From: a virus
Lineage: Duplodnaviria; Caudoviricetes
Reading direction: 5' to 3' (one strand)
IMG/VR virus record: IMGVR_UViG_3300044984_001420
Span: 1-52,860 of that record
DNA length: 52,860 nucleotides
This document shows, piece by piece, positions 5,400 to 21,086 of the stretch; positions within the stretch are counted from its first letter, which is position 1; each line of letters begins with the position of its first letter. Under the pieces are notes generated by a model that was not told the DNA's origin, made no database searches, and was given only the letters and a program-made list of their open reading frames with translations. Position numbers and translations under genes: made by a program.

Positions 5400-5530
5400 T
5401 GGGATGGAATGGGGCACAAGATTATGTTCGCTTAACGAATTGTGTTGAGTGTGACACGGAAGCACAACTTACCGACAGTCTTTGCCACGGTTGCCGAGTC
5501 GCTATGGGTTATGAAAATGAGGAGGAATGA
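5399..5530 (+). CDS. 43-aa CxxC microprotein (not in ORF track)
   Basis: RBS AAGGAG; TGATG overlap; CVEC...CHGC. Confidence 0.55.
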   Translation: MGWNGAQDYVRLTNCVECDTEAQLTDSLCHGCRVAMGYENEEE

Positions 5531-6036
5531 TGAAATTAGGGTTTGATTTATCGACTCCGCAGGGAGCGCTGGAGTTTGCGAATTATGTCCACAAGGATCA
5601 GGTGGACAAAATCGGTGTTCCTTACATTTATCACGTTTCTCGTGTTGGAACCTCTTTGTGGAGGTTTGGTGATGAGTTTGTGATTGCTGGTTTTCTGCAT
5701 GACGTTGTCGAGGACACGGATTACTCGTTGGAGGATCTTTCTGCGATGGGTGCCAGTGATGATGTTGTTTGTGCGGTGGAGTCTGTCACGAAAACGACGT
5801 CTGGAGCCTCTCTCGCAGAGTATGAGGCGAGTGTTCGTAGGGCGATGGATGATCTGATCGGCAGGTTTGTTAAGGCTGCTGATGTGTCTGATAATGGCTC
5901 GCGTGTTGATGATATTCCGTGGGGTTTCTTGCGGTCGAAGATGGCTAAAAAGTATGCGATGGCTGAGCGGGTGATTGCTGAGTACATTCCGGGTTATCGG
6001 CTTGGTTGTGTGTTGGGCCCGCTGCAAGATGCCTAA
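5527..6036 (+). CDS. RelA/SpoT-type HD hydrolase (small alarmone hydrolase-like)
   Basis: A..FA...H.DQVDK.G.PYI.H..RV, AGFLHDVVEDT, V..VTK, VK.AD..DN. Confidence 0.9.
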   Translation: MMKLGFDLSTPQGALEFANYVHKDQVDKIGVPYIYHVSRVGTSLWRFGDEFVIAGFLHDVVEDTDYSLEDLSAMGASDDVVCAVESVTKTTSGASLAEYEASVRRAMDDLIGRFVKAADVSDNGSRVDDIPWGFLRSKMAKKYAMAERVIAEYIPGYRLGCVLGPLQDA

Positions 6037-7034: not shown

Positions 7035-7199
7035 ATGGAGAATCACGAGACCGGGGTTCTTGCTGACATGAGCCCGCTGCAACAATGGGCGACTCAGTTG
7101 CATGAAATATATATTTCTATGCTGCAAGCAGGATTTGCCAGTGCGGAGGCTCTGACACTTATCGCTGGGATCACCCGGCAAGTTGACGACGACGAGTAA
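7035..7199 (+). CDS. 54-aa hypothetical protein (not in ORF track)
   Basis: MENHETG...ATQLHEIYISMLQAGF...EAL; fills the gap before the portal. Confidence 0.6.
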   Translation: MENHETGVLADMSPLQQWATQLHEIYISMLQAGFASAEALTLIAGITRQVDDDE

Positions 7200-7209
7200 T
7201 GGGAGACAT

Positions 7210-8688
7210 ATGGCCCGCGTAGATATGCAAGAACTTGGCACCACTGGACTAAAACGAACCAGTGGGTTTGTTTACGATGAATTCCTTACACGGCTCCAAG
7301 GCATCCAAGGCATCAAAACATATCGGGAGATGTCCGACAACGATCCTGTTATTGGGGCGATTCTTTACGCCATCGAGAAAGTGATCACACGTCTGGAATG
7401 GCGAGTCGACCCCTACACGGATAAAACTTCAGATGGCGACAGTGAAACACTCGACATCGAAAACGCACAATTTATTGAATCATGCCTAAACGATATGAGT
7501 GACACATGGGATTCGACACTCTCACAAATCCTGTCCATGTGCATTTACGGTTTCTCGTTCCATGAAATTGTTTACAAGCAAAGAGTTTCACCTGATAATA
7601 AGGATGCTTCGAAGAGATCCAAGTTCACTGATGGTAAAATTGGTTGGCGTAAATGGTCCATCCGTGGACAGGAAACACTTTACCTTTGGACCTTTGATGA
7701 CAAAGGTGGCATCCAAGGGATGCAACAAGTTGACCCCTACACAGGTCATGGCCGCATCGATATCCCTATCGAGAAGGCTTTATTGTTCCGCACCACTGCC
7801 GCGAAAAACAACCCAGAGGGGCGTAGCCTGTTAAGGAACGCCTACAGGCCGTGGTGGTTCAAACGTCGTATCGAAGAAATTGAGGCAATCGGTATTGAGC
7901 GGGATCTTGCCGGATTACCCATCGCCTATGTGCCACCGGAATATTTATCAAGCACAGCAAGCAATGACCAACAGGTCGTGTTGGCTGCCATCAAACAAAT
8001 CGTCACTTCGATTAAACGCAACGAAAACGAAGGTATCGTTTTCCCACAAGTCTTTGATGATTCAGGGAAACCACTGTTCGACTTGAAACTTATGAGTAGC
8101 GGTGGATCACGCCAATTCGATACCGATAAAGTGATCACGCGCCTAGATCAACGTATCGCCATGTCAGTGCTATCCGACTTTATTCTCCTTGGAAATGACC
8201 GCGTAGGATCTTTCTCTCTCGGTGCAACCAAAATGGATCTGTGGTCAATGTCAGTTGATTCGATAGCAAAAACTATTGCCGACACAGTCAACCAATACGC
8301 TATTCCACGTTTGATGCGTTTGAATGGCATGACTGTAGATCGGGCACCTACGCTGCAGTACAGCGAAGTGGCACACATTGATCTTGGCGAAATCGCTGAC
8401 TTTGTTTCGAAGATGACAACCGCTGGAGTGTTGGCACCGGATCCTGCTTTGGAAGATCACTTGCGTGAACTAGCCGGATTACCTCCAGCGAATCACAACA
8501 TTGAAGACACGGGCACAGATGTTATGTCTGCTGAGGATGCGAAAACTTTACTGGGACTACCACCACAGCAACGCCTTGTTGCTGAAAGAACAGGTATTGT
8601 TCCTGATGGTCCTGCAGCCGCTTCGGAGGAAACACCATTTGGTGGCGACGCTCCCGAGCAATCTGGTGCTGACGAACCAGAGGAGTAA
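7210..8688 (+). CDS. portal protein (Mu gp29/DUF935-like)
   Basis: YGFSFHEIVY, NPEGRSLLR..Y..W.FK, IERDLAG.P, GSFSLG; directly upstream of MuF; ATG 7210 follows GGGAG. Confidence 0.92.
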   Translation: MARVDMQELGTTGLKRTSGFVYDEFLTRLQGIQGIKTYREMSDNDPVIGAILYAIEKVITRLEWRVDPYTDKTSDGDSETLDIENAQFIESCLNDMSDTWDSTLSQILSMCIYGFSFHEIVYKQRVSPDNKDASKRSKFTDGKIGWRKWSIRGQETLYLWTFDDKGGIQGMQQVDPYTGHGRIDIPIEKALLFRTTAAKNNPEGRSLLRNAYRPWWFKRRIEEIEAIGIERDLAGLPIAYVPPEYLSSTASNDQQVVLAAIKQIVTSIKRNENEGIVFPQVFDDSGKPLFDLKLMSSGGSRQFDTDKVITRLDQRIAMSVLSDFILLGNDRVGSFSLGATKMDLWSMSVDSIAKTIADTVNQYAIPRLMRLNGMTVDRAPTLQYSEVAHIDLGEIADFVSKMTTAGVLAPDPALEDHLRELAGLPPANHNIEDTGTDVMSAEDAKTLLGLPPQQRLVAERTGIVPDGPAAASEETPFGGDAPEQSGADEPEE

Positions 8689-8690
8689 AC

Positions 8691-9800
8691 GTGGCTTTGA
8701 CATTTGGTGGTCGTCGCCGGAAACGTCCCGGCGGTGGTCCTCCTTCTACTCCTTTAACTCCGCTGGAGCAGCGTCTCACCGACCGACTTGTCGCGGTGTT
8801 AAATTTGTTGTCACAGAGTCTTAAAGTCAGTGAGTACGAAACTGCTATCAACGAGTTGTCACCCGAATTGTTGGAACAACTTTTGGCTGAAAATAATATT
8901 GATCAAATTAGTTCTTTGATTGAAGAAACACTTTCGGGCATTGTGATGTCTGGAGCCTTGAACGAGGCTAAAAACATTATCAGAACATCCCCGAGGATCG
9001 GCCAGAATCCATTCAATGCCCTCGAATATGGTGGGCAGGTACTCCCTAGTGGAATCATTTTACCGAGGCCGCTAATCTCGTTACCGCCTGATGTTGAGTT
9101 TCTTATCGAAAACCCTGTCGAAAGAATGTTTAAGTTCGTTAACCAAAAGGCAGCGGATTACGCCCGTTTACGCTCAGCACAACTGGTGACCTCCATCTCC
9201 GAATCGAACAGGCTTGCGATACGTCAAGTAATCTCGACGGCTTTCACTGGCACTCGCACAGTTGATCAAACTGCTAGGTCTTTACGCGACATTGTTGGGT
9301 TGCATCCTCGTTGGGCTCGCGCAGTGGAAACATTTAAGGAAACAAACACGACTCGGCTTATCCGGGACGGAATGAGTACAGAGAGCGCTGCTCTCAAGGC
9401 TGAAGAGATGACTCAGAAATATCGGAAGAAACTTATTCGTCGCCGTGCTGAAATGATTGCTCGCACAGAGATACAACAGGCACAGAATTTTGGCAGGGAA
9501 GCATCGTGGCAGGCTAGTGATCGCGCTGGTCTCATTGATCCAAGGGCTGAGAAAGAATGGCGCACAGCACCTCGGGGGAGCCGTTACGGGCCACCTTGTG
9601 ACTTATGCACGGAGTTAAGTGGGAAGCGTGTTCCTTGGAACGGTTCATTCTCGAACGGTTACTCAATGCCACCCGCGCATCCTAATTGTCGTTGCACTGC
9701 GGTTCTTGTTCCTCCGACTCGTGGGCTTACTGGTTTACCATCTCAAGATATGGGTTCGTGGATAGATAAGTTGGATCAACTTGAAGCGGAAGAGGTTTAG
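8691..9800 (+). CDS. MuF/SPP1 gp7-like head morphogenesis protein
   Basis: RAEMIARTE, K.W.T, C..C and PPAHPNCRC; no C-terminal toxin extension. Confidence 0.92.
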   Translation: MALTFGGRRRKRPGGGPPSTPLTPLEQRLTDRLVAVLNLLSQSLKVSEYETAINELSPELLEQLLAENNIDQISSLIEETLSGIVMSGALNEAKNIIRTSPRIGQNPFNALEYGGQVLPSGIILPRPLISLPPDVEFLIENPVERMFKFVNQKAADYARLRSAQLVTSISESNRLAIRQVISTAFTGTRTVDQTARSLRDIVGLHPRWARAVETFKETNTTRLIRDGMSTESAALKAEEMTQKYRKKLIRRRAEMIARTEIQQAQNFGREASWQASDRAGLIDPRAEKEWRTAPRGSRYGPPCDLCTELSGKRVPWNGSFSNGYSMPPAHPNCRCTAVLVPPTRGLTGLPSQDMGSWIDKLDQLEAEEV

Positions 9801-9802
9801 TT

Positions 9803-11572
9803 ATGGTTGAGATTCTTTTTGCTCCGGGGCTACGACCCGTTCTAAAGCATGGAAGTCATAACCAGCAAAACCATGCAGCAAAAACAGGTAGTGAAGACAC
9901 AGGTTCAGGTTCTCCAAAATTAACAATTATGGGTAAGAACGATGGCACGAATAAGTTTTTTAATGAAGATACTCGTGTAGTTCGCCATCAGCCAGATGGA
10001 AAAGAACCTACGGATTATGTTTTATATGCTCAAAAAAATTTTGTAGTCGCAATAGTTAAACCTAAAGACGGAACGACAATCAACGGATATAGCGAAGGCG
10101 GAACAAATAAAGGCGAAATTGGGCATTTAGATATTACTGGCGCTGGAAGTAATCCTTGGCGTAGTTCTGCTAAAAACGATAACAAAGCAACAATTACTGA
10201 AGTTGCTGTAGGTAAAGCGCACCAACGCCGAGGCTTGGCTTCAGCAATGCTTCGTTTCCATAGAGATAAATTTCCTGAGTTAGATGTGCAACATTCTGAT
10301 GCTCAATTACCAGACGGAAAAGCGTGGGCTGAAGTTGCCAAGCATGGAAGTCATGATCAAAAAACTCATGCAGGAAGAATCGGAGTTCACACCGGGCGGC
10401 GTACTGATTCTAAAAATCAACAGAAACTTGATCGAAACCTCATTTATGACGCCACAACAATGTCTGCTCTTCCGGCCCCGTTACGGAAAAAGATTGAAGG
10501 CTCCCTTGAGGTTTTGGGTGTCACGCAAAAACAGATGGAAGACAATGTGCAAGCGGTGCTTGATAGAGCGAAGGCCGCTAATGATCCACCTGAGGGTAGA
10601 GATTGGTACGAACAAGCCAATAATGCAGCGCAGTCAATATCGGATAAGTATGGTTTAAGCAGGACTGAGACGGCGGGCATGATTGCAGCGATGAGTCCGC
10701 AGCAACCGTGGGGTGACAATGTTACGGCAGCGGAATATGTGGCAAAATCGTTGTCCGAAAAGCACGCTGTGCAGGTTGACGATTTGATGGGTCAGTCATT
10801 GACAAAAGGGGTTGGGCAGCCTGCTAAGCCTGTCACGAAAACAATGTATGAGTGGGCGCAGGCCGAAACTGATGGAGTTACAGGCACCCGCAAAATGGAC
10901 GGGCAAACGCACAAGATGCCGGATCCCGATGAACTGCGTGGGAAAACTGTTGACCAGTTAGACCCTTATGTAGCGGCAGCGATTATCAAAGCACACGCTC
11001 AGATGGGTTATCGGGTCGCTGGGGTTGGAGATAATGTTGATGGTCAGCAATTAAAAACTATTGACGATCTTACGGGTCTCCCGGCTCCCGTGAAATTTAC
11101 TTGCGGGGTTCACCACATGGGCCGCGCCGTCAGAGTCGCGCAAGGCGAAAGTCCAGATGAGGTTTTGAACGGCCACAAAGTTCGATCCTTCTACAACAAC
11201 ATTTCCGGCGACAAGTCCGTTGGCACTTACTCGGACGATGTCACCGTAGATTCGCATGCTTTTAGTGTGGCGATGGGCGTAAAGTATGGTTCGGGTTCCG
11301 TTGAGTACGGATATTTCGCTGGATCTAGTTGGCCTAACCCGGCGTCAACGAAAGAAAACAGGTTACCGCCGTTGCACAGTGCGGTTGGCAGCGCGACGCC
11401 CGGAGTTGCTGGATCGTATGCCGCATTCGCTGACGCCTATCGAGAGGTTGGTCGGCGTAACGGTTTGTCGGCTCGCGAGGTGCAATCGATTACTTGGGTT
11501 CAGTGGCGGAAAGATAACCCTGATCAAACAAGGGGTGGGCAGATGGCTGCAATGGAGGTAGAAAATGAGTGA
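9803..11572 (+). CDS. modular polyprotein 1: tag-GNAT acetyltransferase / tag-glycosylase-like domain
   Basis: KHGSHNQQNH and KHGSHDQKTH tags; GNAT motif A (VAVGKAHQRRGLASAML); second domain WY...IAAMSPQ..W..N...KVRSFY.NI...VTVDSHA...VQSITW. Confidence 0.75.
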   Translation: MVEILFAPGLRPVLKHGSHNQQNHAAKTGSEDTGSGSPKLTIMGKNDGTNKFFNEDTRVVRHQPDGKEPTDYVLYAQKNFVVAIVKPKDGTTINGYSEGGTNKGEIGHLDITGAGSNPWRSSAKNDNKATITEVAVGKAHQRRGLASAMLRFHRDKFPELDVQHSDAQLPDGKAWAEVAKHGSHDQKTHAGRIGVHTGRRTDSKNQQKLDRNLIYDATTMSALPAPLRKKIEGSLEVLGVTQKQMEDNVQAVLDRAKAANDPPEGRDWYEQANNAAQSISDKYGLSRTETAGMIAAMSPQQPWGDNVTAAEYVAKSLSEKHAVQVDDLMGQSLTKGVGQPAKPVTKTMYEWAQAETDGVTGTRKMDGQTHKMPDPDELRGKTVDQLDPYVAAAIIKAHAQMGYRVAGVGDNVDGQQLKTIDDLTGLPAPVKFTCGVHHMGRAVRVAQGESPDEVLNGHKVRSFYNNISGDKSVGTYSDDVTVDSHAFSVAMGVKYGSGSVEYGYFAGSSWPNPASTKENRLPPLHSAVGSATPGVAGSYAAFADAYREVGRRNGLSAREVQSITWVQWRKDNPDQTRGGQMAAMEVENE

Positions 11573-13052
11573 TGTTCGGATTTCTCCCAATACGGATCCT
11601 GATGAACTTGGGGATCTTGTTGACCCGTGGGATGCGTGGCTGAATGGTGATATTGCAACGGAAGACCTCTCCGATGATTTGCAGAAATATGCTTTAGAGT
11701 TCACAGATTCCACTTCTATGACTTCGCTTGTTTCTGAGCCTGTTGTTATTAAGTTTCAGGCTGGACTTAAACCGATTTTGAAGCATCTTCCGGGACAACA
11801 TGATCAGTCTTCTCACGGGGGCGGCGGTGGACAGTTATCACTCCGAGGTGTTGGTGGTGCTGGTGCTTCAGGTGAATTTTCTGAGTGGGGTGATCGGGCT
11901 CCTGAGTTGATTGCTGCACGAGGTATTGGTCCTAGTCGAGATGAGTTAGAAGCGGCTATTGCCCGTAAGGTTTCTCGTCAAGAAGTGCGCGAAAGTATCG
12001 AATCAACTTTTAGTTACGATATCAAAACTGAAACTGATATTAGAATGCTTAGCAATGCACCGCGTGATATGGATGAAAAACAACGCGCCATCCTAAGAGA
12101 TGAATTGTACGAACGGGCTGTTGATAGATACGTTGAACAGTACGGGTTTGAGGCGCGAAGGCGTCTAATAGATAGAAATAGTACCGATATAGATCTGTCT
12201 TCTATGGAAGATGTTTACAGTGTTACGCATGAAGGTGTGACTCGTAATGGTGTGTCCGTTAGTTTACGTTCTGAAGTTACTTCCGTTGAAAAGTATGGAT
12301 CAAATTCTTTTGATGTGCAAGGACCGATTATAGATAATAAGACTGGAAGTGGGGTTGGTCGATTTAAAAGAAGTTTTGGTGCTGATGAAAATGGAAACCT
12401 GTCAGTCTCACACGAATTCTTAGAGATAAGTGATGACTATCAAGGATCAGGTTTCGCTAAAACATTTAACAGGCAGGCTGAAAATTTCTACATCACCCGT
12501 GGTATCAACGATGTTTATGTTCACGCCGCTTTAGATGGTGGCGGTTACGCTTGGGCTTCTGCAGGATTCGATTGGGATCGCGGAAATCTAAATCAATCGG
12601 TCAATAACATTTCACGCAGGATGGATACTTACTTAACGGATAAACCTAATATTCCAAGGACGATCAGAGCCGATATTCAATCAACTCAAACAAGGTTGAA
12701 GTCACTTCCCGTGGGCAGCCCTAACTATCCGACACCTAAAGAGATCTCTGACCTTGGTCGTATTGAAGGGGTAAATAATTGGCCGGGTAAAGAAATCATG
12801 CGTGGATCTAACTGGTACGGCAAGAAAACTTTACGTCCTGAGGGTGCGCGGGTTTCTACGACTCAAGCCGCTAAGGAATCTGAGAGGGCTCAGCAGCGGG
12901 AAATTCAACAGGAGCGTAATCGTGAGGCTGCTACGAGAGCGCCCGGTGTAGGACAGTTGACGATGGATAACAATTTTCTGGATGGGGCATTACGGCAGTC
13001 TCCTGCTTACCAAACCCCATTAATTGAACCTATCCCCGGTATGGTACAATGA
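11565..13052 (+). CDS. modular polyprotein 2: acidic N-domain / tag-GNAT acetyltransferase
   Basis: KHLPGQHDQSSH tag; ISDDYQGSGFAKTF...GGYAWASAGFDW GNAT signature. Confidence 0.75.
   Translation: MSDVRISPNTDPDELGDLVDPWDAWLNGDIATEDLSDDLQKYALEFTDSTSMTSLVSEPVVIKFQAGLKPILKHLPGQHDQSSHGGGGGQLSLRGVGGAGASGEFSEWGDRAPELIAARGIGPSRDELEAAIARKVSRQEVRESIESTFSYDIKTETDIRMLSNAPRDMDEKQRAILRDELYERAVDRYVEQYGFEARRRLIDRNSTDIDLSSMEDVYSVTHEGVTRNGVSVSLRSEVTSVEKYGSNSFDVQGPIIDNKTGSGVGRFKRSFGADENGNLSVSHEFLEISDDYQGSGFAKTFNRQAENFYITRGINDVYVHAALDGGGYAWASAGFDWDRGNLNQSVNNISRRMDTYLTDKPNIPRTIRADIQSTQTRLKSLPVGSPNYPTPKEISDLGRIEGVNNWPGKEIMRGSNWYGKKTLRPEGARVSTTQAAKESERAQQREIQQERNREAATRAPGVGQLTMDNNFLDGALRQSPAYQTPLIEPIPGMVQ
13042..13050 (+). 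promoter_or_regulatory. extended -10 promoter (TGgTACAAT)
   Basis: Upstream of RBS GGGAGG and ATG 13069. Confidence 0.6.
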
Positions 13053-13068
13053 TTGTGGGAGGAAAACT

Positions 13069-13311
13069 ATGAACAGAGAACAAGAATTAGCGCGAGTTTC
13101 CGACGTCAACGAAAAATGGCTACGGACGTTTAAAGACACACCAAACTTCGATCCAGACAATCCAACACTGGAGCAATCCGATGAAGAGTACCGTTTAACA
13201 AAAGAAGAGTTTGGTCAAGTTGGTGTGGGAGAGTTCGCAGAGTCCGTAGCGAAAATGAGTGAAGAAGAATTAGCGGAATTGCGTAAATCGCCAATTTATC
13301 AAGATATATAG
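13069..13311 (+). CDS. small acidic protein, candidate partner/immunity of the upstream GNAT
   Basis: Own promoter and RBS; Glu/Asp-rich. Confidence 0.65.
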   Translation: MNREQELARVSDVNEKWLRTFKDTPNFDPDNPTLEQSDEEYRLTKEEFGQVGVGEFAESVAKMSEEELAELRKSPIYQDI

Positions 13312-13370
13312 GTCGTAGGTCTTTAATCCCCTATCCTTGACTCGTAGCACTTCGCAGAAGAGGATGGCAT

Positions 13371-16343
13371 GTGAACAAGACTGATACACGACTAGCAGGT
13401 TTGAGCGATGCTCAACTAATTGCTACACACAATGGTCTCGACGATCAGGTATCAGCCGACGCTGCAATCATTGAAGCACACCATTTAGTGGCAATCGAAA
13501 TGTTGAAAAGAAACATTCCTCACGGTCACATTGATGATGCGTGGGTCGATGCTGTAGTCCTGATTGAAAAAGTTGCAGTCGACAGCCCTGAGGATATTGC
13601 TGCACCTGCAGGAATTGAGAAGGCGTGGTCTCAAGCCTTGGTTAAGGGCGGAACTGTTTCTGTTTTGTTGACTACCAATGGTTATGTTTTGAAGGCGGAC
13701 CCAACGGTATCCGACGTGCATGTCGATGCTGTCATGGGCAGTGGGCGTCGCCGTAAACCTCAGGCCAACATTTTTGATCTGCAAAAAACGATTAAGGAAG
13801 AAGACGGGAAATTCACCGTTTACTCGGAGGACGGTGCCCGGAAGTTTGGCACTTATGCGTCTTTAGAAGAGGCTGAGGCCCGTTTGCGGCAGATAGAGCG
13901 TTTCTCTAAGGCCGAGGGTTATTCGGTCCCTAGCGGGGTTCAGGAGGCTGCTAAGCGGGCTGTTGCGTGGATTCAAGATGGCAAGGCGGGCGATGGGTTC
14001 ACTAGCGTCGGTCGTAACAGGGCCAGTCAACTGGCTTCCGGTGGCGTGATTGGTCAGGCGACTCTGGTAAAGATGCGTGCCTATTTTGCACGTCACGGTA
14101 AGCAACGCGGGAATCATGATGCTCTGGTCGATGGTGAGCCAACACCGTGGAGGGTGGCGTGGGATGCGTGGGGCGGTGACGCTGGTAGGGCGTGGGTCAA
14201 CCGTGTTCTAGGTGCCGTGGAGAAGCGTGCTACTCCTGAGCCAATCATTGACTTGCATTTGAATCTTGAGAACCGGCAGCACGCGATTGACGAGTATTTG
14301 TACGGACCGATGAATCCTGATGAACCGGGCGACTATTGGGATCGTCTTGGTGAAGTGTGGGGGGTGTCTGGCGATGAGGCTTCGACGACCCGTTGCGGGA
14401 ATTGTGCGGCTTTCAATGTGAAGTCGGAGATCAAGGATGCAATGGGCGATGCGATTAGCGAGGAGGGCGAGGAGGTAGTTGATCTTGCGGATCTCGGTTA
14501 CTGCGAGTTGTTGCAGTTCAAGTGCGCTGGCAGTCGCTCGTGTTCCGTCTGGTTGACGGGTGGGCCGATTAGTGACGATTTTGAGGGCAGCGACGACGAA
14601 ATTGAGTTGCTGGAATCAATGGATGCTGAGGATTTTGCTGAGTTTGCTGCGTATGCTTATTTGGCTGATGAGATGGAAGAAGAATTTGAGAAGCGCGGTA
14701 ATCCTGAGGCTTTGCGGGACTACTGGCGTAAAGGCGGTAAAGGTAAGATCCCGTGGGGTGCCGGTGGTGATTTCACGGCTTGTGTCGCTGCAGTGGGTAA
14801 GTACATGTCGTCGGAGCAGGCTAAGGGCTATTGCGCTATTCGTCATCGTGAGGTCACTGGTATGTGGCCGGGTGATAAGAGGAATCGCACTAAGAAGTCC
14901 CGTGAGGCGACAGCGAAGTTCACCCTTCCCGGTGGTGCCACTTACGAATATAGCCTCCCAGTGGACTTCACAGGGGATTTAGAGACCATTTTGAAGCACG
15001 GTAGCCATGATCAGAAGGCTCACGCGGGCAAGGGTGGTGCTTCGGGTGATGTTGACCCAGAAATCGCCGCTTCAATTGTTGAACGTGTGCGGGCTAACGG
15101 CGGGTTAAGTGTCAACATGGTTGATGGTTCTGAGCCGCCAAGTGGTTACATGGTTGCTCGTGTTGGAGTTAAGGCAGCAATTGTTGATGCCGATGATTTT
15201 TATGACACTGAAAAAGGACCGGCTGCATTATCGTCTTTTATGAAGGACAATAAAGCCGAATTATCCGGGGGTGACTACCTCGGGGTATGGCACGATACTG
15301 ATGGGGGTAAGGTGTACCTCGACGTATCACAAAATGTTGCAAGCCGATCCACTGCTATACGGTTTGGTGAAGAAAGAAATCAACTCAGTATTTGGGATGT
15401 AGTAGAGGGAATGGAGATACCAACTGGTGGCACAGGAGAACTTGAAAAAGCAAAAGCCTTTAGAGGCGATCAAGTTGCCGGATCTGTCGAAGATGACGGA
15501 CGAGGAGATCGACGCTTACGCGAAAGAGATTTGGTTGAACTTCAGCCAGAAATAAATAAGCACCTAAAAGGTAAGCACGATCAGAGCAGTCACTCTCGTG
15601 GTGGAGGCAGAAGTGATACCACGGTTCAAAGTGGTGGCGCTGGGGCAGTCGAGTATGGCGGCTATAAATTAAATGCGCCTGACAATCCTGCCGGTGAGAC
15701 TGCAAAGCGCGGTGCCGATTCTATTGCCGCAGCAAAAAAAGAACGGGCTAAAGTTGCTTCTATTGAGCCAGAGATTACTCGGGACATGATTGATGTGGCG
15801 AACGCTAATGGTGCAAAAATGGATGGGCTTGATCAACGTTTAAAATCTGAGAAATCATTGGCCCGGAAAATAGATGATGAAAAAGATTCCGACTTTGATG
15901 GTGATGCAACAAAGACCGCTGAAAACATGTCTGACGTTGCTCGTTACACGATGACGTACAAAGACAGTGATTATGTTTCCGGTGCGAATCGAGTGGTTGA
16001 GGATTTGCGGGAAAAAGGCTATGAGATGCGTGTTAAAAATTATTGGCAAGATGGTGACCCGTATCAGGGCATCAACATCAGCGCGGTTCATCCAAACGGC
16101 ACTAAGTTTGAGTTGCAGTTACATACGCCAACGTCTCTTGATTTTAAGGAGCCTACGCACGCAAAGTATGACAAGTATCGTGAGTCAACTAGCCCTCAAG
16201 TTCGGTACAAGGAATACACCAGCATGAGGCGTATTGCTCGACAGATTCCAAAACCACCACCTCCTGATGGATTAAGTGCCATTGGTGATGCTAAGTTCCA
16301 GCCCTTTACCCCGACGCCTGAGTCAGCCCCTGTCGCCATATGA
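13371..16343 (+). CDS. modular polyprotein 3 (990 aa) ending in a RelA/SpoT-like nucleotidyltransferase domain
   Basis: At least 7 modules separated by x-x-K|A/R/H/T sites; two KH..HDQ..H tags; C-terminal RLKSEKSLARKI, DVARYT, VKNYW, YQGIN, FELQLHT. Confidence 0.8.
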   Translation: MNKTDTRLAGLSDAQLIATHNGLDDQVSADAAIIEAHHLVAIEMLKRNIPHGHIDDAWVDAVVLIEKVAVDSPEDIAAPAGIEKAWSQALVKGGTVSVLLTTNGYVLKADPTVSDVHVDAVMGSGRRRKPQANIFDLQKTIKEEDGKFTVYSEDGARKFGTYASLEEAEARLRQIERFSKAEGYSVPSGVQEAAKRAVAWIQDGKAGDGFTSVGRNRASQLASGGVIGQATLVKMRAYFARHGKQRGNHDALVDGEPTPWRVAWDAWGGDAGRAWVNRVLGAVEKRATPEPIIDLHLNLENRQHAIDEYLYGPMNPDEPGDYWDRLGEVWGVSGDEASTTRCGNCAAFNVKSEIKDAMGDAISEEGEEVVDLADLGYCELLQFKCAGSRSCSVWLTGGPISDDFEGSDDEIELLESMDAEDFAEFAAYAYLADEMEEEFEKRGNPEALRDYWRKGGKGKIPWGAGGDFTACVAAVGKYMSSEQAKGYCAIRHREVTGMWPGDKRNRTKKSREATAKFTLPGGATYEYSLPVDFTGDLETILKHGSHDQKAHAGKGGASGDVDPEIAASIVERVRANGGLSVNMVDGSEPPSGYMVARVGVKAAIVDADDFYDTEKGPAALSSFMKDNKAELSGGDYLGVWHDTDGGKVYLDVSQNVASRSTAIRFGEERNQLSIWDVVEGMEIPTGGTGELEKAKAFRGDQVAGSVEDDGRGDRRLRERDLVELQPEINKHLKGKHDQSSHSRGGGRSDTTVQSGGAGAVEYGGYKLNAPDNPAGETAKRGADSIAAAKKERAKVASIEPEITRDMIDVANANGAKMDGLDQRLKSEKSLARKIDDEKDSDFDGDATKTAENMSDVARYTMTYKDSDYVSGANRVVEDLREKGYEMRVKNYWQDGDPYQGINISAVHPNGTKFELQLHTPTSLDFKEPTHAKYDKYRESTSPQVRYKEYTSMRRIARQIPKPPPPDGLSAIGDAKFQPFTPTPESAPVAI
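15442..15555 (+). CDS. nested +1-frame 37-aa microprotein (putative)
   Basis: TTG start after AGGAG; MKKQKPLEAIKLPDLSKMTDEEIDAYAKEIWLNFSQK; stop lies just before the next KH tag. Confidence 0.45.
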   Translation: MKKQKPLEAIKLPDLSKMTDEEIDAYAKEIWLNFSQK

Positions 16344-16356
16344 ACATAACCCGGGT

Positions 16357-16365
16357 TGGTATAAT
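16357..16365 (+). promoter_or_regulatory. extended -10 promoter (TGgTATAAT)
   Basis: Perfect consensus upstream of RBS AGAAAGGA and ATG 16387. Confidence 0.7.
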
Positions 16366-16386
16366 GTCTTTAGAAAGGAATTGACG

Positions 16387-17013
16387 ATGGAAATACGATA
16401 TTTCGTAATGACAGATAAAGACGATCAACCGTTGACGCTTTTGCGTCTCAGAATTGATGACACAGCCGAAGAGTTGTATGAAGAAGAGTGGAAAAATGAT
16501 TGGCAAGAATCCAAACGGCTAATGCTGTACATCACTGACGGTGATCCCAGACTGATTGAGATAACAGAGACTGAGGCCCGTGAAACTTTTCCTTCAGCGT
16601 TTTCGGAAGCGACACTAATTTCGAAGGCTGTCGATGAACGCATGTTCACCCTTGGTCCTATGTATATTCCAAACGTGATGGATGCTCATAACGAGTGGAC
16701 GGATCCTGATGAGTTGCAAAAGGCTGTTTGGGATTATGTGCAAAAAGGTGATCGTCGGATTCGTTTGCAGCATGATCGGGATAAGATCGCTGGCGAGTTT
16801 GTTGAGATCATGACTTGGCCTTATGAGGTTGAGGTTCCTATGCTGATGAAAAACGCGACCGAGAAAAAACTTAAGTTCCCGGCTAACACTGTTTTTCTTG
16901 GGGTTGTTTGGGAGCCGTGGGCATGGAAGATGGTAAAGGACGGTAAACTTAGAGGATATTCGATTGGTGGTCGTGCTGAGAGACTCTTGGCGGATCTTCC
17001 TGATGAGGAGTGA
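16387..17013 (+). CDS. XkdF-like prohead serine protease with an extra acidic N-terminal domain
   Basis: K|AVDERMFTLGPMY.P...DAH...L.KA...RLQH...W.MVKDGKLRGYSIGG; the first ~75 aa are unrelated to the protease. Confidence 0.85.
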   Translation: MEIRYFVMTDKDDQPLTLLRLRIDDTAEELYEEEWKNDWQESKRLMLYITDGDPRLIEITETEARETFPSAFSEATLISKAVDERMFTLGPMYIPNVMDAHNEWTDPDELQKAVWDYVQKGDRRIRLQHDRDKIAGEFVEIMTWPYEVEVPMLMKNATEKKLKFPANTVFLGVVWEPWAWKMVKDGKLRGYSIGGRAERLLADLPDEE

Positions 17014-17333
17014 CAGTGTTTCTTTCTAACGATGACGGCAAGCCTTTAACTATTAAGCCACGGACGGTTGTGAAAGCGTCTTACAAGCAAGGCGATTTTG
17101 CTTCGTGGAATAGTAGCGGTGGTATGGCTCGTGGAACTGTTGAACGTATTCTCACTGAAGGCGTGTTGAATATTCCTGATAGCAGTTTCAAGATCAATGC
17201 TGAGGAAGATGATCCTGCTGTTTTGTTGCGCGTTTACCGTAAGTTCGGTGATGGTTGGCGTAAGACCCCTACTTTGGTTGGTCACAAGATGAGTACGTTG
17301 ACAAAGATTGAACCGTTGAAGATCGGTGAATAG
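17010..17333 (+). CDS. head-associated Tudor/SH3-like (DUF2945-like) protein
   Basis: K.GDFASWNSSGG.ARG.VERI...DPA.L.RVY...VGHKMSTL.KI. Confidence 0.65.
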   Translation: MTVFLSNDDGKPLTIKPRTVVKASYKQGDFASWNSSGGMARGTVERILTEGVLNIPDSSFKINAEEDDPAVLLRVYRKFGDGWRKTPTLVGHKMSTLTKIEPLKIGE

Positions 17334-18736: not shown

Positions 18737-18781
18737 ATTGATTTCGGGGTTGGTTGAAACTCCATCCCCCCTCCATGATTG

Positions 18782-18850
18782 TGCTAATCTACAAGTTATC
18801 GAGACCTGCGGGTTGTTGTTTAACGCATAAGGCGTTAAATGATTGCCCGC
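18782..18850 (+). promoter_or_regulatory. promoter (TGcTAATCT) and leader hairpin of the scaffold/capsid operon
   Basis: Stem 18808-18826/18832-18850 upstream of RBS AGGAGG. Confidence 0.5.
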
Positions 18851-18870
18851 TCTTTCATGTAGGAGGATCG

Positions 18871-19686
18871 GTGGGACGACCGGCTCGCAAGATGGTTAAC
18901 CTTTCCATCGAAGAAACGTCGGGTGTTGATCACCCGGCACACTTGCATGAAGGTTGGCTCGTAATGAAAGCCGCCTCGGAGGACGCAGTTGCAGTTGCAC
19001 TCGATAGTGCCGCTGTAGAGATCCCGAGTGAAGATACAGATAAGTCCACCGAGGAGGATGTCGTGGAAGAAACCACAATTGAGAAGGCTGAAAAGCCATC
19101 TTATGAGGATCTAATGATGGCCCTCAAGAAGGCTGAAGAGCGTCTTGTTGAGATGGAAAAAGAAATGAATGGGATGAAGAAGCCCAAAGAAGCGATGGTA
19201 GATGAAGAAGAAGACATGATGAAGTCTGCTCCTGAGTCTGTTCGCAAGGCATTCGAAGATATGCAAAAGGCTGTTGAAGACGCGAAGGCTCAGGCTGACG
19301 TCGCTGAAACAGAATTGCGTAAAGAACGTGGCGAGCGTGCCGATGCAGATGCAATCGTCAAAGCCCGTACTTCTTTCGCATCTCTTGGTCTTGATGCCGA
19401 GCAGGTTGGCCCAGCATTGCGCCGCCTTGCAGATAATGATTCTGATCTTGCTAAGTCCGTCGAGGATGTTTTGACTGCTGCTAACGCAAAAGTTGAGTCC
19501 GCTGACATTTTTAGTGAGATTGGTAAGTCGACTCGTGTAGCGGGTTCGGTTTACGAAAAGGCTGAGGCTATGGCTAAAGCCGCCGTTGTGGACGGGAAGC
19601 ATTCCACAATCGAGCAGGCGTTGACCGATGTGTTTACTTCGGACAGCGATCTGTACAAGTCATATCTCGCCGAGCAGGGAAAGTGA
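18871..19686 (+). CDS. capsid scaffolding protein with an N-terminal protease-like EtSgVDhPA segment
   Basis: GTG after AGGAGG; acidic coiled coil with many K|A and K|S sites; lies before the capsid genes. Confidence 0.8.
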   Translation: MGRPARKMVNLSIEETSGVDHPAHLHEGWLVMKAASEDAVAVALDSAAVEIPSEDTDKSTEEDVVEETTIEKAEKPSYEDLMMALKKAEERLVEMEKEMNGMKKPKEAMVDEEEDMMKSAPESVRKAFEDMQKAVEDAKAQADVAETELRKERGERADADAIVKARTSFASLGLDAEQVGPALRRLADNDSDLAKSVEDVLTAANAKVESADIFSEIGKSTRVAGSVYEKAEAMAKAAVVDGKHSTIEQALTDVFTSDSDLYKSYLAEQGK

Positions 19687-20108: not shown

Positions 20109-21086
20109 ATGCCACAACCAACAATCAGCGACGTCCATATTGACGCGATTCTGACGAACATTTCTGTTGCATACATGCAAAAAGCAGAAAACATGATCGC
20201 AGATAAGGTCTTTCCGGTCGTCCCAGTTGATAAGAAGTCAAACAAATATTTTACTTATGACAAGAATGACTGGTTCCGTGACGAAGCACAGCGTCGCGCA
20301 CCGGGCACTGAGTCTGCTGGTGGCGGGTACAACCTGTCCACAACTACCTATTCGGCTGATGTTTTTGCATTCCACAAGGATGTAGACGATCAGACTCTTG
20401 CTAACGCTGATACGCCACTTAACCCGTTGCGTGAGGCTGCAGAGTTTGTGACAAGCCGTTTGCTTCTTCGCCGTGAGGTTCAGTTTATTTCTGACTTCAT
20501 GACGACTGGAGTTTGGGCAACTGACGCCACTGGTGTTAGCGGATCCCCAAGCAGTGGTGAATTCCGTCAGTGGAACGACTACACCAATTCAGATCCGATT
20601 GAGGATATTGAAGAAGCAAAAGAGGATATCCTTTCAACCACGGGTTACGAGGCCAATACTCTTGTTCTTGGTTATCAGTCGTTCCGCCAGTTGAAGAACC
20701 ATCCTGATGTTGTTGACCGCTACAAGTACACAACTTCAAGCGTGATCACTGAGGAAATGTTGGCACGCTTGTTTGGTGTTGATCGTATCCTCGTGGCAAA
20801 GTCAGTTCGGGCAACCAACAATGAAGGTCTCACTCCTGCTTACGGATTCAATTTCGGCAAGAGTGCATGTCTCCTCCACGTTGCACCAAATCCCGGTTTG
20901 ATGACACCTTCCGCTGGTTACATCTTTGCTTGGACCGGCGTTTCGGGTGGGCTTGGTTCCACTATCGGTACTTCACAGTTCCGTATGGAAAGCCTGCGTG
21001 CCGCTCGCATTGAGGCTGAGGTTGCCTTCGACAACAAAGTTGTTGCAAGCGATCTTGGTTATTTCTTTGCTAGTTGCGTGGCTTAA
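20109..21086 (+). CDS. major capsid protein
   Basis: HID..LTNISVAY...IADKVFP.VPV.K; strong RBS TAAGGAG; followed by a terminator. Confidence 0.92.
   Translation: MPQPTISDVHIDAILTNISVAYMQKAENMIADKVFPVVPVDKKSNKYFTYDKNDWFRDEAQRRAPGTESAGGGYNLSTTTYSADVFAFHKDVDDQTLANADTPLNPLREAAEFVTSRLLLRREVQFISDFMTTGVWATDATGVSGSPSSGEFRQWNDYTNSDPIEDIEEAKEDILSTTGYEANTLVLGYQSFRQLKNHPDVVDRYKYTTSSVITEEMLARLFGVDRILVAKSVRATNNEGLTPAYGFNFGKSACLLHVAPNPGLMTPSAGYIFAWTGVSGGLGSTIGTSQFRMESLRAARIEAEVAFDNKVVASDLGYFFASCVA

Follow-up and report, generated by a model that had tools for sequence, protein, structure and literature searches.

A recurrent peptide tag at the heads of enzyme modules in phage head-gene clusters as a candidate signal for processing and loading of capsid cargo

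The capsid-targeting sequence (CTS) of phage T4 is removed by the T4 protease. As set out in the text of PMC3012670, it is a short conserved N-terminal peptide, the sole feature common to an otherwise diverse set of proteins that enter the prohead and are later injected, and it can carry foreign proteins. For phage SPN3US, the text of PMC10052503 describes a protease, gp245, that trims itself and cuts head and ejection proteins at a short P3-P2-P1 motif with Val preferred at P4; two of the substrates carry N-terminal propeptides of 20 and 24 residues. Polyvalent proteins, in the main text of Iyer, Burroughs, Anand, de Souza and Aravind (2017, PMC5512222), are multidomain virion or transfer proteins of phages and conjugative elements that include ART, GNAT, MuF, NUDIX and peptidase domains and are encoded near head genes. 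The text of PMC12226406 reports Apk2 MuF toxins of Pasteurella, Mannheimia and Streptococcus pneumoniae that make (p)ppApp, together with hydrolase immunity proteins. Here we describe a peptide tag that occurs five times in the IMG/VR virus record IMGVR_UViG_3300044984_001420 (52,860 bases, estimated completeness 88%; the whole stretch is called the window below). The tag, written K-H-x(2,4)-H-[DN]-Q-x-x-H in the window, lies in three open reading frames (ORFs) of 589, 495 and 990 residues located between MuF and an XkdF-type prohead protease.

All features of the window given here are on the + strand. ORF1 (9803–11572) starts two bases after the MuF ORF and consists of a leader, tag 1, a GNAT-like module, tag 2 and a DUF7178 module. 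ORF2 (11565–13052) has a 72-residue N-terminal part, a leader, tag 3 and a helical plus GNAT-fold module, and ORF3 (13371–16343) an N-terminal region, tag 4, a module of unknown function, tag 5 and an alarmone-synthetase-like module. The tags themselves lie at 9845–9874 (KHGSHNQQNH, a short form with the Asn variant), 10340–10369 (KHGSHDQKTH), 11781–11816 (KHLPGQHDQSSH, long form), 14994–15023 (KHGSHDQKAH) and 15558–15593 (KHLKGKHDQSSH, long form), with the coordinates and translations given in a preliminary description of this DNA. Six-frame translation of the window contains the core H-[DN]-Q-x-x-H exactly five times, each time inside ORF1–3 and after K-H. The DNA pattern CAYRAYCARNNNNNNCAY has five matches; in 100 dinucleotide-shuffled versions of the window it has 0.28 on average and never reaches five. 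The upstream segment said to be shared by two tags (EILFAPGLRPVLKH and VIKFQAGLKPILKH) is real. It belongs to the commonest of the few strand-like leader types that precede N-terminal tags in relatives, type A, which recurs at the starts of many of their ORFs and is represented by MVEILFAPGLRPVL (9803–9844) immediately 5' of tag 1 and by the leader of tag 3. Two untagged N-terminal parts, residues 1–72 of ORF2 and residues 1–540 of ORF3, had gone unmentioned.

The full motif is bipartite and covers about 18 residues: hydrophobic-x-K-H, a spacer of 0 or 2 residues, and G-x-H-D-Q-x-x-H-G-x-W-A-x-G. A back-translated K-H-G-x-H-D-Q-x-x-H pattern matched at least 119 IMG/VR loci, many of them with two to six matches on one strand, and the core motif was found 373 times in the 972 kb of these tagged loci and in 115 of the 119. 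Each locus thus has one tag or more whose K, H, G, H, D, Q and H were set by the pattern. Positions outside it are also conserved (V at −6 in 51%, G at +6 in 87%, W at +8 in 75%, A at +9 in 73% and G at +11 in 73%), and conservation at these unfixed positions agrees in an independent global tag set. The hydrophobic-x-K context first seen in the window proved to be general: of the tags in the short form (719) 80%, and of those in the long form (259) 78%, have V, I, L or M at the second position ahead of the Lys. The Lys is invariant, and Pro is frequent three residues before it. The K|A and K|S sites of scaffold and protease, with which the preliminary description compared this context, are assumed ones.

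A profile search with the tag was run with a 35-position profile (A2) built from 150 tags. It returned 1122 representative proteins (clusters at 50% identity) at E ≤ 1e-3 among 1.84 billion, with 345 at E ≤ 1e-10 and 34 at E ≤ 1e-30. The largest number of tags in one protein, 20, is found in P0002 (7059 amino acids, aa), where Gly replaces the first core His in 16 of them. A second database search gave 743 tagged proteins among 8000 scored candidates; the best 120 of the 743 are all metagenomic in source, two of them being also in NCBI, and apart from JGI names of the acetyltransferase/hydrolase type they are called "hypothetical protein" only. Among representative genomes of 185,579 species, the strict tag pattern occurred in three contigs (L120–L122), all from Actinomycetota metagenome-assembled genomes (MAGs), which is a weak hint at the host group; the small number of matches in bacterial genomes suggests that the tag is rare in prophages. 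No PDB sequence matched A2 at E ≤ 10, and Pfam scans of the tagged proteins yielded no family covering the tag. In cultured phages, megablast of the whole array gave no match, and tblastn of ORF3 and of its middle part gave domain homologues only, none aligned over the tag. A homologue search with a 61-residue region returned one near-identical protein only, the E-value scale being limiting.

Invariant residues of the tag are encoded by freely varying synonymous codons, and thus selection acts on the tag peptide, not on DNA or RNA. A DNA- or RNA-level element or recombination site is ruled out by the same observation. The exception to free codon use is the Asp of H-D-Q, which is GAC in 85% of tags compared with 37% for the other Asp residues of the same ORFs; the four Asp tags of the window all use GAT. 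As for position, 201 ORFs have a complete 5' end; the Lys of the first tag is among the first 30 residues in 91 of these and among the first five in none. Of 193 last tags, only 3 lie within 60 residues of the C-terminus. This nearness to N-termini and rarity near C-termini indicate that the tag belongs to the module downstream of it. Successive tags mostly lie about one domain apart: the distance is 100–300 residues for 103 of the 117 spacings in the loci and for 263 of the 346 in the global set.

When the tag-bearing proteins were cut at their tags, 387 modules were obtained, represented by 140 at 40% identity. Grouped by their first 150 residues, the downstream modules form 81 families. Pfam assigned 16 of the 140 representatives to ART exoenzymes, at least five to GNAT and two each to DUF7178, DUF5872 and DUF3626, with a zeta toxin, a topoisomerase I, a HAD phosphatase, an HNH and a SprT domain as singletons; ART-PolyVal (PF18760) is likewise found in tagged proteins. 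The carriers upstream of the tag in the same set are MuF (5), XkdF (4), Hva1_TUDOR (3), portal (1) and S78 protease (1). Leaders and modules are shuffled, so that one module family stands behind leader types A, B, C and others. Modules are also repeated within chains: P0005 (2201 aa) has nine ART domains and nine tags, and P0003 (1880 aa) has six ART domains plus a GNAT and eight tags.

The gene context reported for the array was borne out. Upstream of it lie a portal protein (7183–8688; Pfam Portal_Mu, E 7.8e-39; phrog_113 portal, E 3e-87) and a MuF-like minor head protein in an ORF of its own (8691–9800; Phage_Mu_F, E 1.4e-09, and several head-morphogenesis PHROGs). Downstream are the XkdF-type prohead serine protease (16276–17013, likely start ATG 16387; Peptidase_S78_2, E 2.2e-12), which has 42 distinct homologues among the tagged loci, a small Hva1_TUDOR head-module protein (17010–17333; PF11160, E 6.4e-08), a putative scaffold-like coiled-coil protein (18754–19686; phrog_13547, with position and composition judged by eye) and the major head protein (20109–21086; phrog_1005, E 1.9e-101). 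The lack of any link of the tag to head modules or domain boundaries in other genomes had been named as an outcome that would refute its interpretation; such links do recur there. At least one homologue of the window's head genes is present in 98 of the 119 loci (MuF in 55, XkdF in 55, scaffold in 49, Tudor in 46, portal in 44 and major head protein in 40), counts which are not independent, as most loci are relatives of one lineage. In the 22 loci with both MuF and XkdF, the slot between the two spans 2.8–7.8 kb, and 51 of its 56 same-strand frames of at least 150 residues are tagged. The 21 loci without window-like genes contain Phage_portal (6), MuF (4), Phage_capsid (3) and terminases, and tags also occur in lineages with Phage_portal, S78 and HK97-type capsid genes; a few T7-like replication regions among the 21 are probably chance matches of the pattern.

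Tags are found on assembly proteins as well. Protease-scaffold fusions of other phages are cut at the junction where two of the loci carry tags: L041 (3737–4984) has a tag and then an acidic coiled-coil tail behind its XkdF protease, and in L038 (6036–7670) the order is S78 protease, tag, X, tag, Y, directly upstream of an HK97-type capsid gene and without MuF. Visual comparison suggests a resemblance between the scaffold-like protein of the window, at its N-terminus (SGVDHPAHLHEGWLVMK), and the last strand motif in the protease domains of these loci (SLVDRPANPNAKL in L041 and SLTPNPANPNAY in L038); this protein may descend from a protease-scaffold fusion. In addition, 30 of 32 loci have, just after the Tudor-like ORF, a frame without a start codon that encodes a tag followed by some 60 residues of conserved acidic tail. 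The Tudor-like ORF stops 11 bases before the Lys codon of the tag, and the tag frame is −1 relative to it. The junction contains an A9 run in 29 loci and an A7 run in three, and the Tudor ORF ends in CTA-AAA-AAA-AAG-TAG (L021, 6120–6141, and 29 further loci, e.g., L001, L005, L007 and L011). In L023, L024 and L043, the tag and the acidic tail are in frame with the Tudor-like protein. The junction is a candidate for programmed −1 frameshifting or transcriptional slippage, judging from its sequence; the window's own Tudor gene has no tag-tail extension. Together, the tags on protease-scaffold tails and on the Tudor acidic tail point to a junction signal of head assembly in general, beyond an effector leader.

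AlphaFold2 models A4 and A6 were built from alignments of 33 and 29 rows; the two-module region was aligned as the separate sets A4 and A5. The predicted local distance difference test score (pLDDT) is below 50 for the two tags in model A4, for the single tag in model A6 and for the leaders of these tags, and it is above 90 for the adjoining domains. The tags are likely to be a short linear motif in a disordered linker, as far as these models can tell, and the three modelled tags are predicted to offer the accessible, unstructured segment expected of a prohead-protease site.

The reading we prefer, and to which we give roughly an even chance, is that the tag is a portable processing and loading signal that is cut by the prohead protease after V-x-K and thereby frees capsid cargo enzymes. 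ORF1–3 would then be "polyvalent" virion cargo, i.e., chains of independent enzyme modules that are packed at the procapsid stage and reach the host together with the DNA. The chains would be brought into the procapsid by a carrier, which may be MuF, portal, protease, the Tudor-like protein or the N-terminal region of ORF3, and there the prohead protease would recognise the tag and cut at V-x-K↓H, separating the modules from one another and from the carrier. The conserved stretch after the Lys may serve as a recognition or docking element and possibly as the loading signal of ORFs with a short leader. We infer the cleavage, the protease responsible for it, the scissile bond, packaging and ejection from several observations. 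A cut after the Lys is favoured by its invariance and its surroundings, with a hydrophobic residue at the second position before it in about 80% of tags and frequent Pro at the third, and the tags at protease-scaffold junctions point in the same direction, towards processing by the prohead protease. A protease of the S78 superfamily is encoded in the same module in the window, in 55 of the 119 loci (XkdF) and in L038 (S78). An additional role in docking or loading is suggested by the length of the conserved block that follows the Lys, and would explain why the tag is kept by ORFs with only a short leader. A complex prediction for the XkdF protease (A8, 38 rows) and the tag (A7, 120 rows), run without controls, scored 0.01 against a mark of 0.32 and speaks neither for nor against this reading.

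Several points weigh against this reading, in addition to the common lineage of most loci. The 18 conserved residues, mostly C-terminal to the Lys, exceed what a protease site usually needs and suit a peptide with a docking or other function no less well. Where a tag stands at an ORF start, cutting behind its Lys would remove only 11–25 residues, so that separation of domains cannot be the whole purpose. Zincin-like peptidase domains (PF07737 and PF10263) are present in some tagged proteins and could do the cutting instead. The five tags of the window itself have no G-x-W-A part. A cultured phage with the tag was not found, as tblastn of a 46-aa tag segment gave no match at E ≤ 1 in 2.3 Gb; a single tag is too short to reach that threshold in such a database, and this result therefore leaves room for tags in cultured phages. 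Finally, another motif of these head modules, DPTVSDVH[VI]D, could be the real protease or assembly signal. It is common to the C-terminal tails of XkdF proteases (about 30 distinct sequences, e.g., L021, 5630–5700), the N-terminus of the major head protein (20109–20160, where it reads PTISDVHIDAIL) and ORF3 (DPTVSDVHVD, 13698–13727), and is absent from the window's protease. To judge by where it recurs, it is possibly a mimic of the N-arm of the head protein for incorporation or targeting, or else a protease site.

More tentatively, and as a possibility that we would still call doubtful, the tag could be a self-contained "load-and-release" plug-in socket of a large, probably actinobacterial, phage clade, such that whatever domain stands behind it is loaded into the procapsid, cut free by the prohead protease and injected together with the DNA. 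If so, at least 81 module families would have been plugged into it, with up to 20 cargos per carrier, multiplying the payload per docking site. The socket would be a natural, sequence-defined equivalent of the T4 CTS for polyproteins, and proteins of choice might be loaded into capsids by means of it.

It is also conceivable, although we consider it rather unlikely, that the tag is an uncut cargo-loading peptide that docks on the procapsid interior (the inner face of the major head protein, the scaffold, the portal or MuF), in the manner of encapsulin cargo-loading peptides and the T4 CTS. Several tags in one protein would then provide avidity or load several copies, and any cut would fall elsewhere in the linker or not occur. 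A conserved stretch of about 18 residues that includes an aromatic W-A pair is typical of a docking motif, the location in a low-confidence and probably disordered segment suits one, and in the 91 of 201 ORFs with a tag near their start there is nothing upstream to separate. However, tags are internal as often as N-terminal, and a docking role is less obvious for those between a protease and scaffold-like tails. The 7059-aa protein with its 20 tags or the nine-ART chain is hard to picture working uncut, the window's tags are without the W-A part, and in a pure docking motif there is no obvious reason for an invariant K with a hydrophobic residue two before it.

Cleavage of the tag by another agent, i.e., a zincin-like peptidase, a host protease after injection, or a metal-assisted or autocatalytic reaction, appears to us quite improbable. 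The ATLF-like (PF07737) and SprT-like (PF10263) peptidase domains of some tagged proteins are compatible with it, zincin-like peptidases are proposed as processors of polyvalent proteins in the text of Iyer et al. (PMC5512222), and the motif is rich in His, Asp and Gln. On the other hand, ORF1–3 contain no HExxH, HExxxH or HxxEH and still have five tags, and tags co-occur with S78 and XkdF proteases, i.e., with two protease families. Gly in place of the first core His in most P0002 tags also weighs against such cleavage, and Ser/Thr after the Gln is not invariant, contrary to a fixed autocatalytic chemistry. Among narrower candidates, Ser/Thr-based autoproteolysis is unlikely for the latter reason, and the Gly variant weakens the case for a strict metal site of three His. 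A covalent isopeptide link that anchors the tag to the capsid is disfavoured by reasoning alone, since the cargo could then not be ejected.

We find it very unlikely that the tag is a functional N-terminal peptide acting in the infected cell, through binding of metal or a host factor, localisation or stability, and that it has no part in assembly. Such a role would agree with a motif that heads each enzyme module, with the three His and one Asp of its commonest form and with a narrow range of candidate hosts, all three matches in bacterial bins being Actinomycetota MAGs. Against it stand the tags on assembly proteins that are not effectors (the protease-scaffold fusions and the Tudor-like protein with its acidic tail), the tight linkage to the slot between MuF and the protease and the tolerance of the Gly variant. 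A passive linker or recombination joint, copied along with the modules and without biochemical role, could account for the shuffling of leaders and modules around the tag and for the Gly/Ser/acidic linkers after it, but is hardly credible, as invariant residues kept across the 1122 clusters with free synonymous sites mean strong purifying selection, and the DNA identity needed for recombination is not conserved.

In the preliminary description, each of the five tags was said to head a different enzyme domain. The domains are indeed unrelated to one another; the individual assignments were confirmed only in part. Module 5 (15612–16340), called RelA/SpoT-like, is well matched to a small alarmone synthetase, with profile A5 finding PDB 8vx3 ("SaSAS") at E 1.6e-25; its match to Pfam RelA_SpoT (E 0.0012) is below the cut-off. 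Its nearest cultured relatives in tblastn, at 31–39% identity, are the C-terminal ends of MuF-type head proteins from phages of Pasteurella, Mannheimia and S. pneumoniae, and it would, by similarity only, be an Apk2-type adenosine 3'-pyrophosphokinase (RelA/SpoT-like) domain. The GNAT assignment of module 3 in ORF2 (11835–13049) is upheld by a model with pLDDT mostly above 90 and Foldseek matches to NatD/Naa50/AtaT-type GNATs with probability 1.00 (E about 4e-4). This acetyltransferase-like module has an N-terminal helical subdomain and 40 module matches in the tagged loci. For module 1 (9893–10339) the GNAT assignment is weak (Acetyltransf_1, E 0.0028, 18.3 bits compared with a cut-off of 20.7); a 91% identical module stands behind a different leader in L040. 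The designation of module 2 (10388–11569) as glycosylase-like was not supported, since the module belongs to DUF7178, a viral family of unknown function (PF23802, E 1e-35). It had no PDB relative at E ≤ 1, and in the ESM Atlas it matched only DUF7178 viral clusters, with a score of 0.96.

Module 4 (15042–15563) had been left as unknown. It is modelled as a compact alpha/beta domain with pLDDT above 90 over model residues of about 40–165, and despite this confident model Foldseek found no PDB fold match at E ≤ 0.001. In tblastn, its match to a protein of Synechococcus phage P60 annotated as "internal virion protein" has 29% identity (E 3e-4), and hypothetical proteins of Rhodococcus, Mycobacterium, Gordonia and Fusobacterium phages are matched too. 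The "anchor" region at the N-terminus of ORF3 (13371–14993) is similar to phrog_2859 over residues 6–286 and to phrog_6439 over residues 436–509; it has 29 module matches in the loci and is always upstream of a tag in relatives. At the other end of ORF3, the protease frame, extended upstream, shares 68 bases with the end of this ORF (16276–16343), both frames being open, and the same overlap of an ORF3-type end and the protease frame is seen in L021 (4949–5000). This overlap probably reflects start-codon ambiguity only. Further upstream, an HD-domain gene like those of small alarmone hydrolases (5527–6036; Pfam HD_4, E 3.9e-07; phrog_990, metal-dependent phosphohydrolase) has PDB 7smg, a "(p)ppApp hydrolase", as its best PDB match (E 1.3e-11). 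It is not adjacent to module 5; its product is a possible antidote to the packaged module, and the two could form a toxin/antidote pair.

The way in which injected proteins are selected, loaded and released is known for a few model phages (T4, P22, P1 and giant phages), and for polyvalent proteins loading and release rest on prediction. A sequence-defined signal present in more than 1000 protein clusters would make the question testable. The tag would also provide a search handle for injected effectors of uncultured phages, among them ART, GNAT, alarmone-synthetase, zeta-toxin-like and nuclease modules as well as unknowns, and would explain why effectors are strung into giant polyproteins. It might further become a tool for loading proteins into HK97-fold capsids. 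Even if it should be only a docking motif or only a cleavage motif, it would add to phage head assembly a short linear motif that is both new and widespread.

The tag had been put forward as a motif of which no description was known, and this holds: literal tag strings occur in none of roughly 8.4 million texts, and topic searches were unmatched, within open-licence PMC and bioRxiv papers, supplements aside. The searched passages of Iyer et al. do not describe this junction motif, which their supplementary alignments might show, and the text of Jamet et al. (2017, PMC5576092) does not contain "linker", "cleav..." or "conserved motif". We have thus found no description of the motif itself in print, and the concept has precedents in protease-processed, capsid-targeted injected proteins.

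Compared with these precedents, ORF1–3 fit the class of polyvalent proteins. They are encoded on a virus record between MuF and the prohead protease, ORF1 (GNAT-like plus DUF7178) and ORF3 each join unrelated domains in one polypeptide, and the repertoire is shared, with ART, GNAT and ART-PolyVal in tagged proteins and a GNAT fold and a RelA-like domain in the window. They differ from the polyvalent theme of an embedded zincin processor, which is a common theme and not a requirement, in having no zincin signature. Module 5 is similar to MuF-protein C-termini from the organisms of the Apk2 toxins, and the window also encodes a (p)ppApp-hydrolase-like protein, a candidate counterpart of the immunity hydrolases. 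Unlike in the Apk2 MuF toxins, MuF is here a separate ORF and the toxin-like domain stands behind a different N-terminal region and a tag; elsewhere, MuF is fused upstream of the tag in the five of 140 representative modules mentioned above. MuF toxins are described on temperate phages, whereas the tag is nearly absent from bacterial genomes.

Similar to the SPN3US sites, as far as the text of that study describes them, the tag would combine a fixed P1 with constrained upstream positions (V-x-K) and follows leaders of 11–25 residues. Its motif and P1 differ from those of the giant phages (SPN3US and phiKZ), whose sites are short, are not part of an 18-residue block and do not delimit chains of enzyme domains. 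Encapsulin cargo-loading peptides are short disordered segments by which diverse enzymes attach to the inside wall of an HK97-fold shell. They usually stand singly at the C-terminus and have neither sequence relatedness to the tag nor a link to a protease. The T4 CTS resembles the tag in being a short conserved peptide, which in our case heads at least 81 otherwise unrelated module families. The CTS occurs singly and begins small separate proteins, in contrast to the tag, of which polyproteins contain up to 20 copies and which is longer, bipartite and found in phages with XkdF or S78 proteases, the T4 head module and protease being of a different type. The likeness to T4 drawn here is one of logic.

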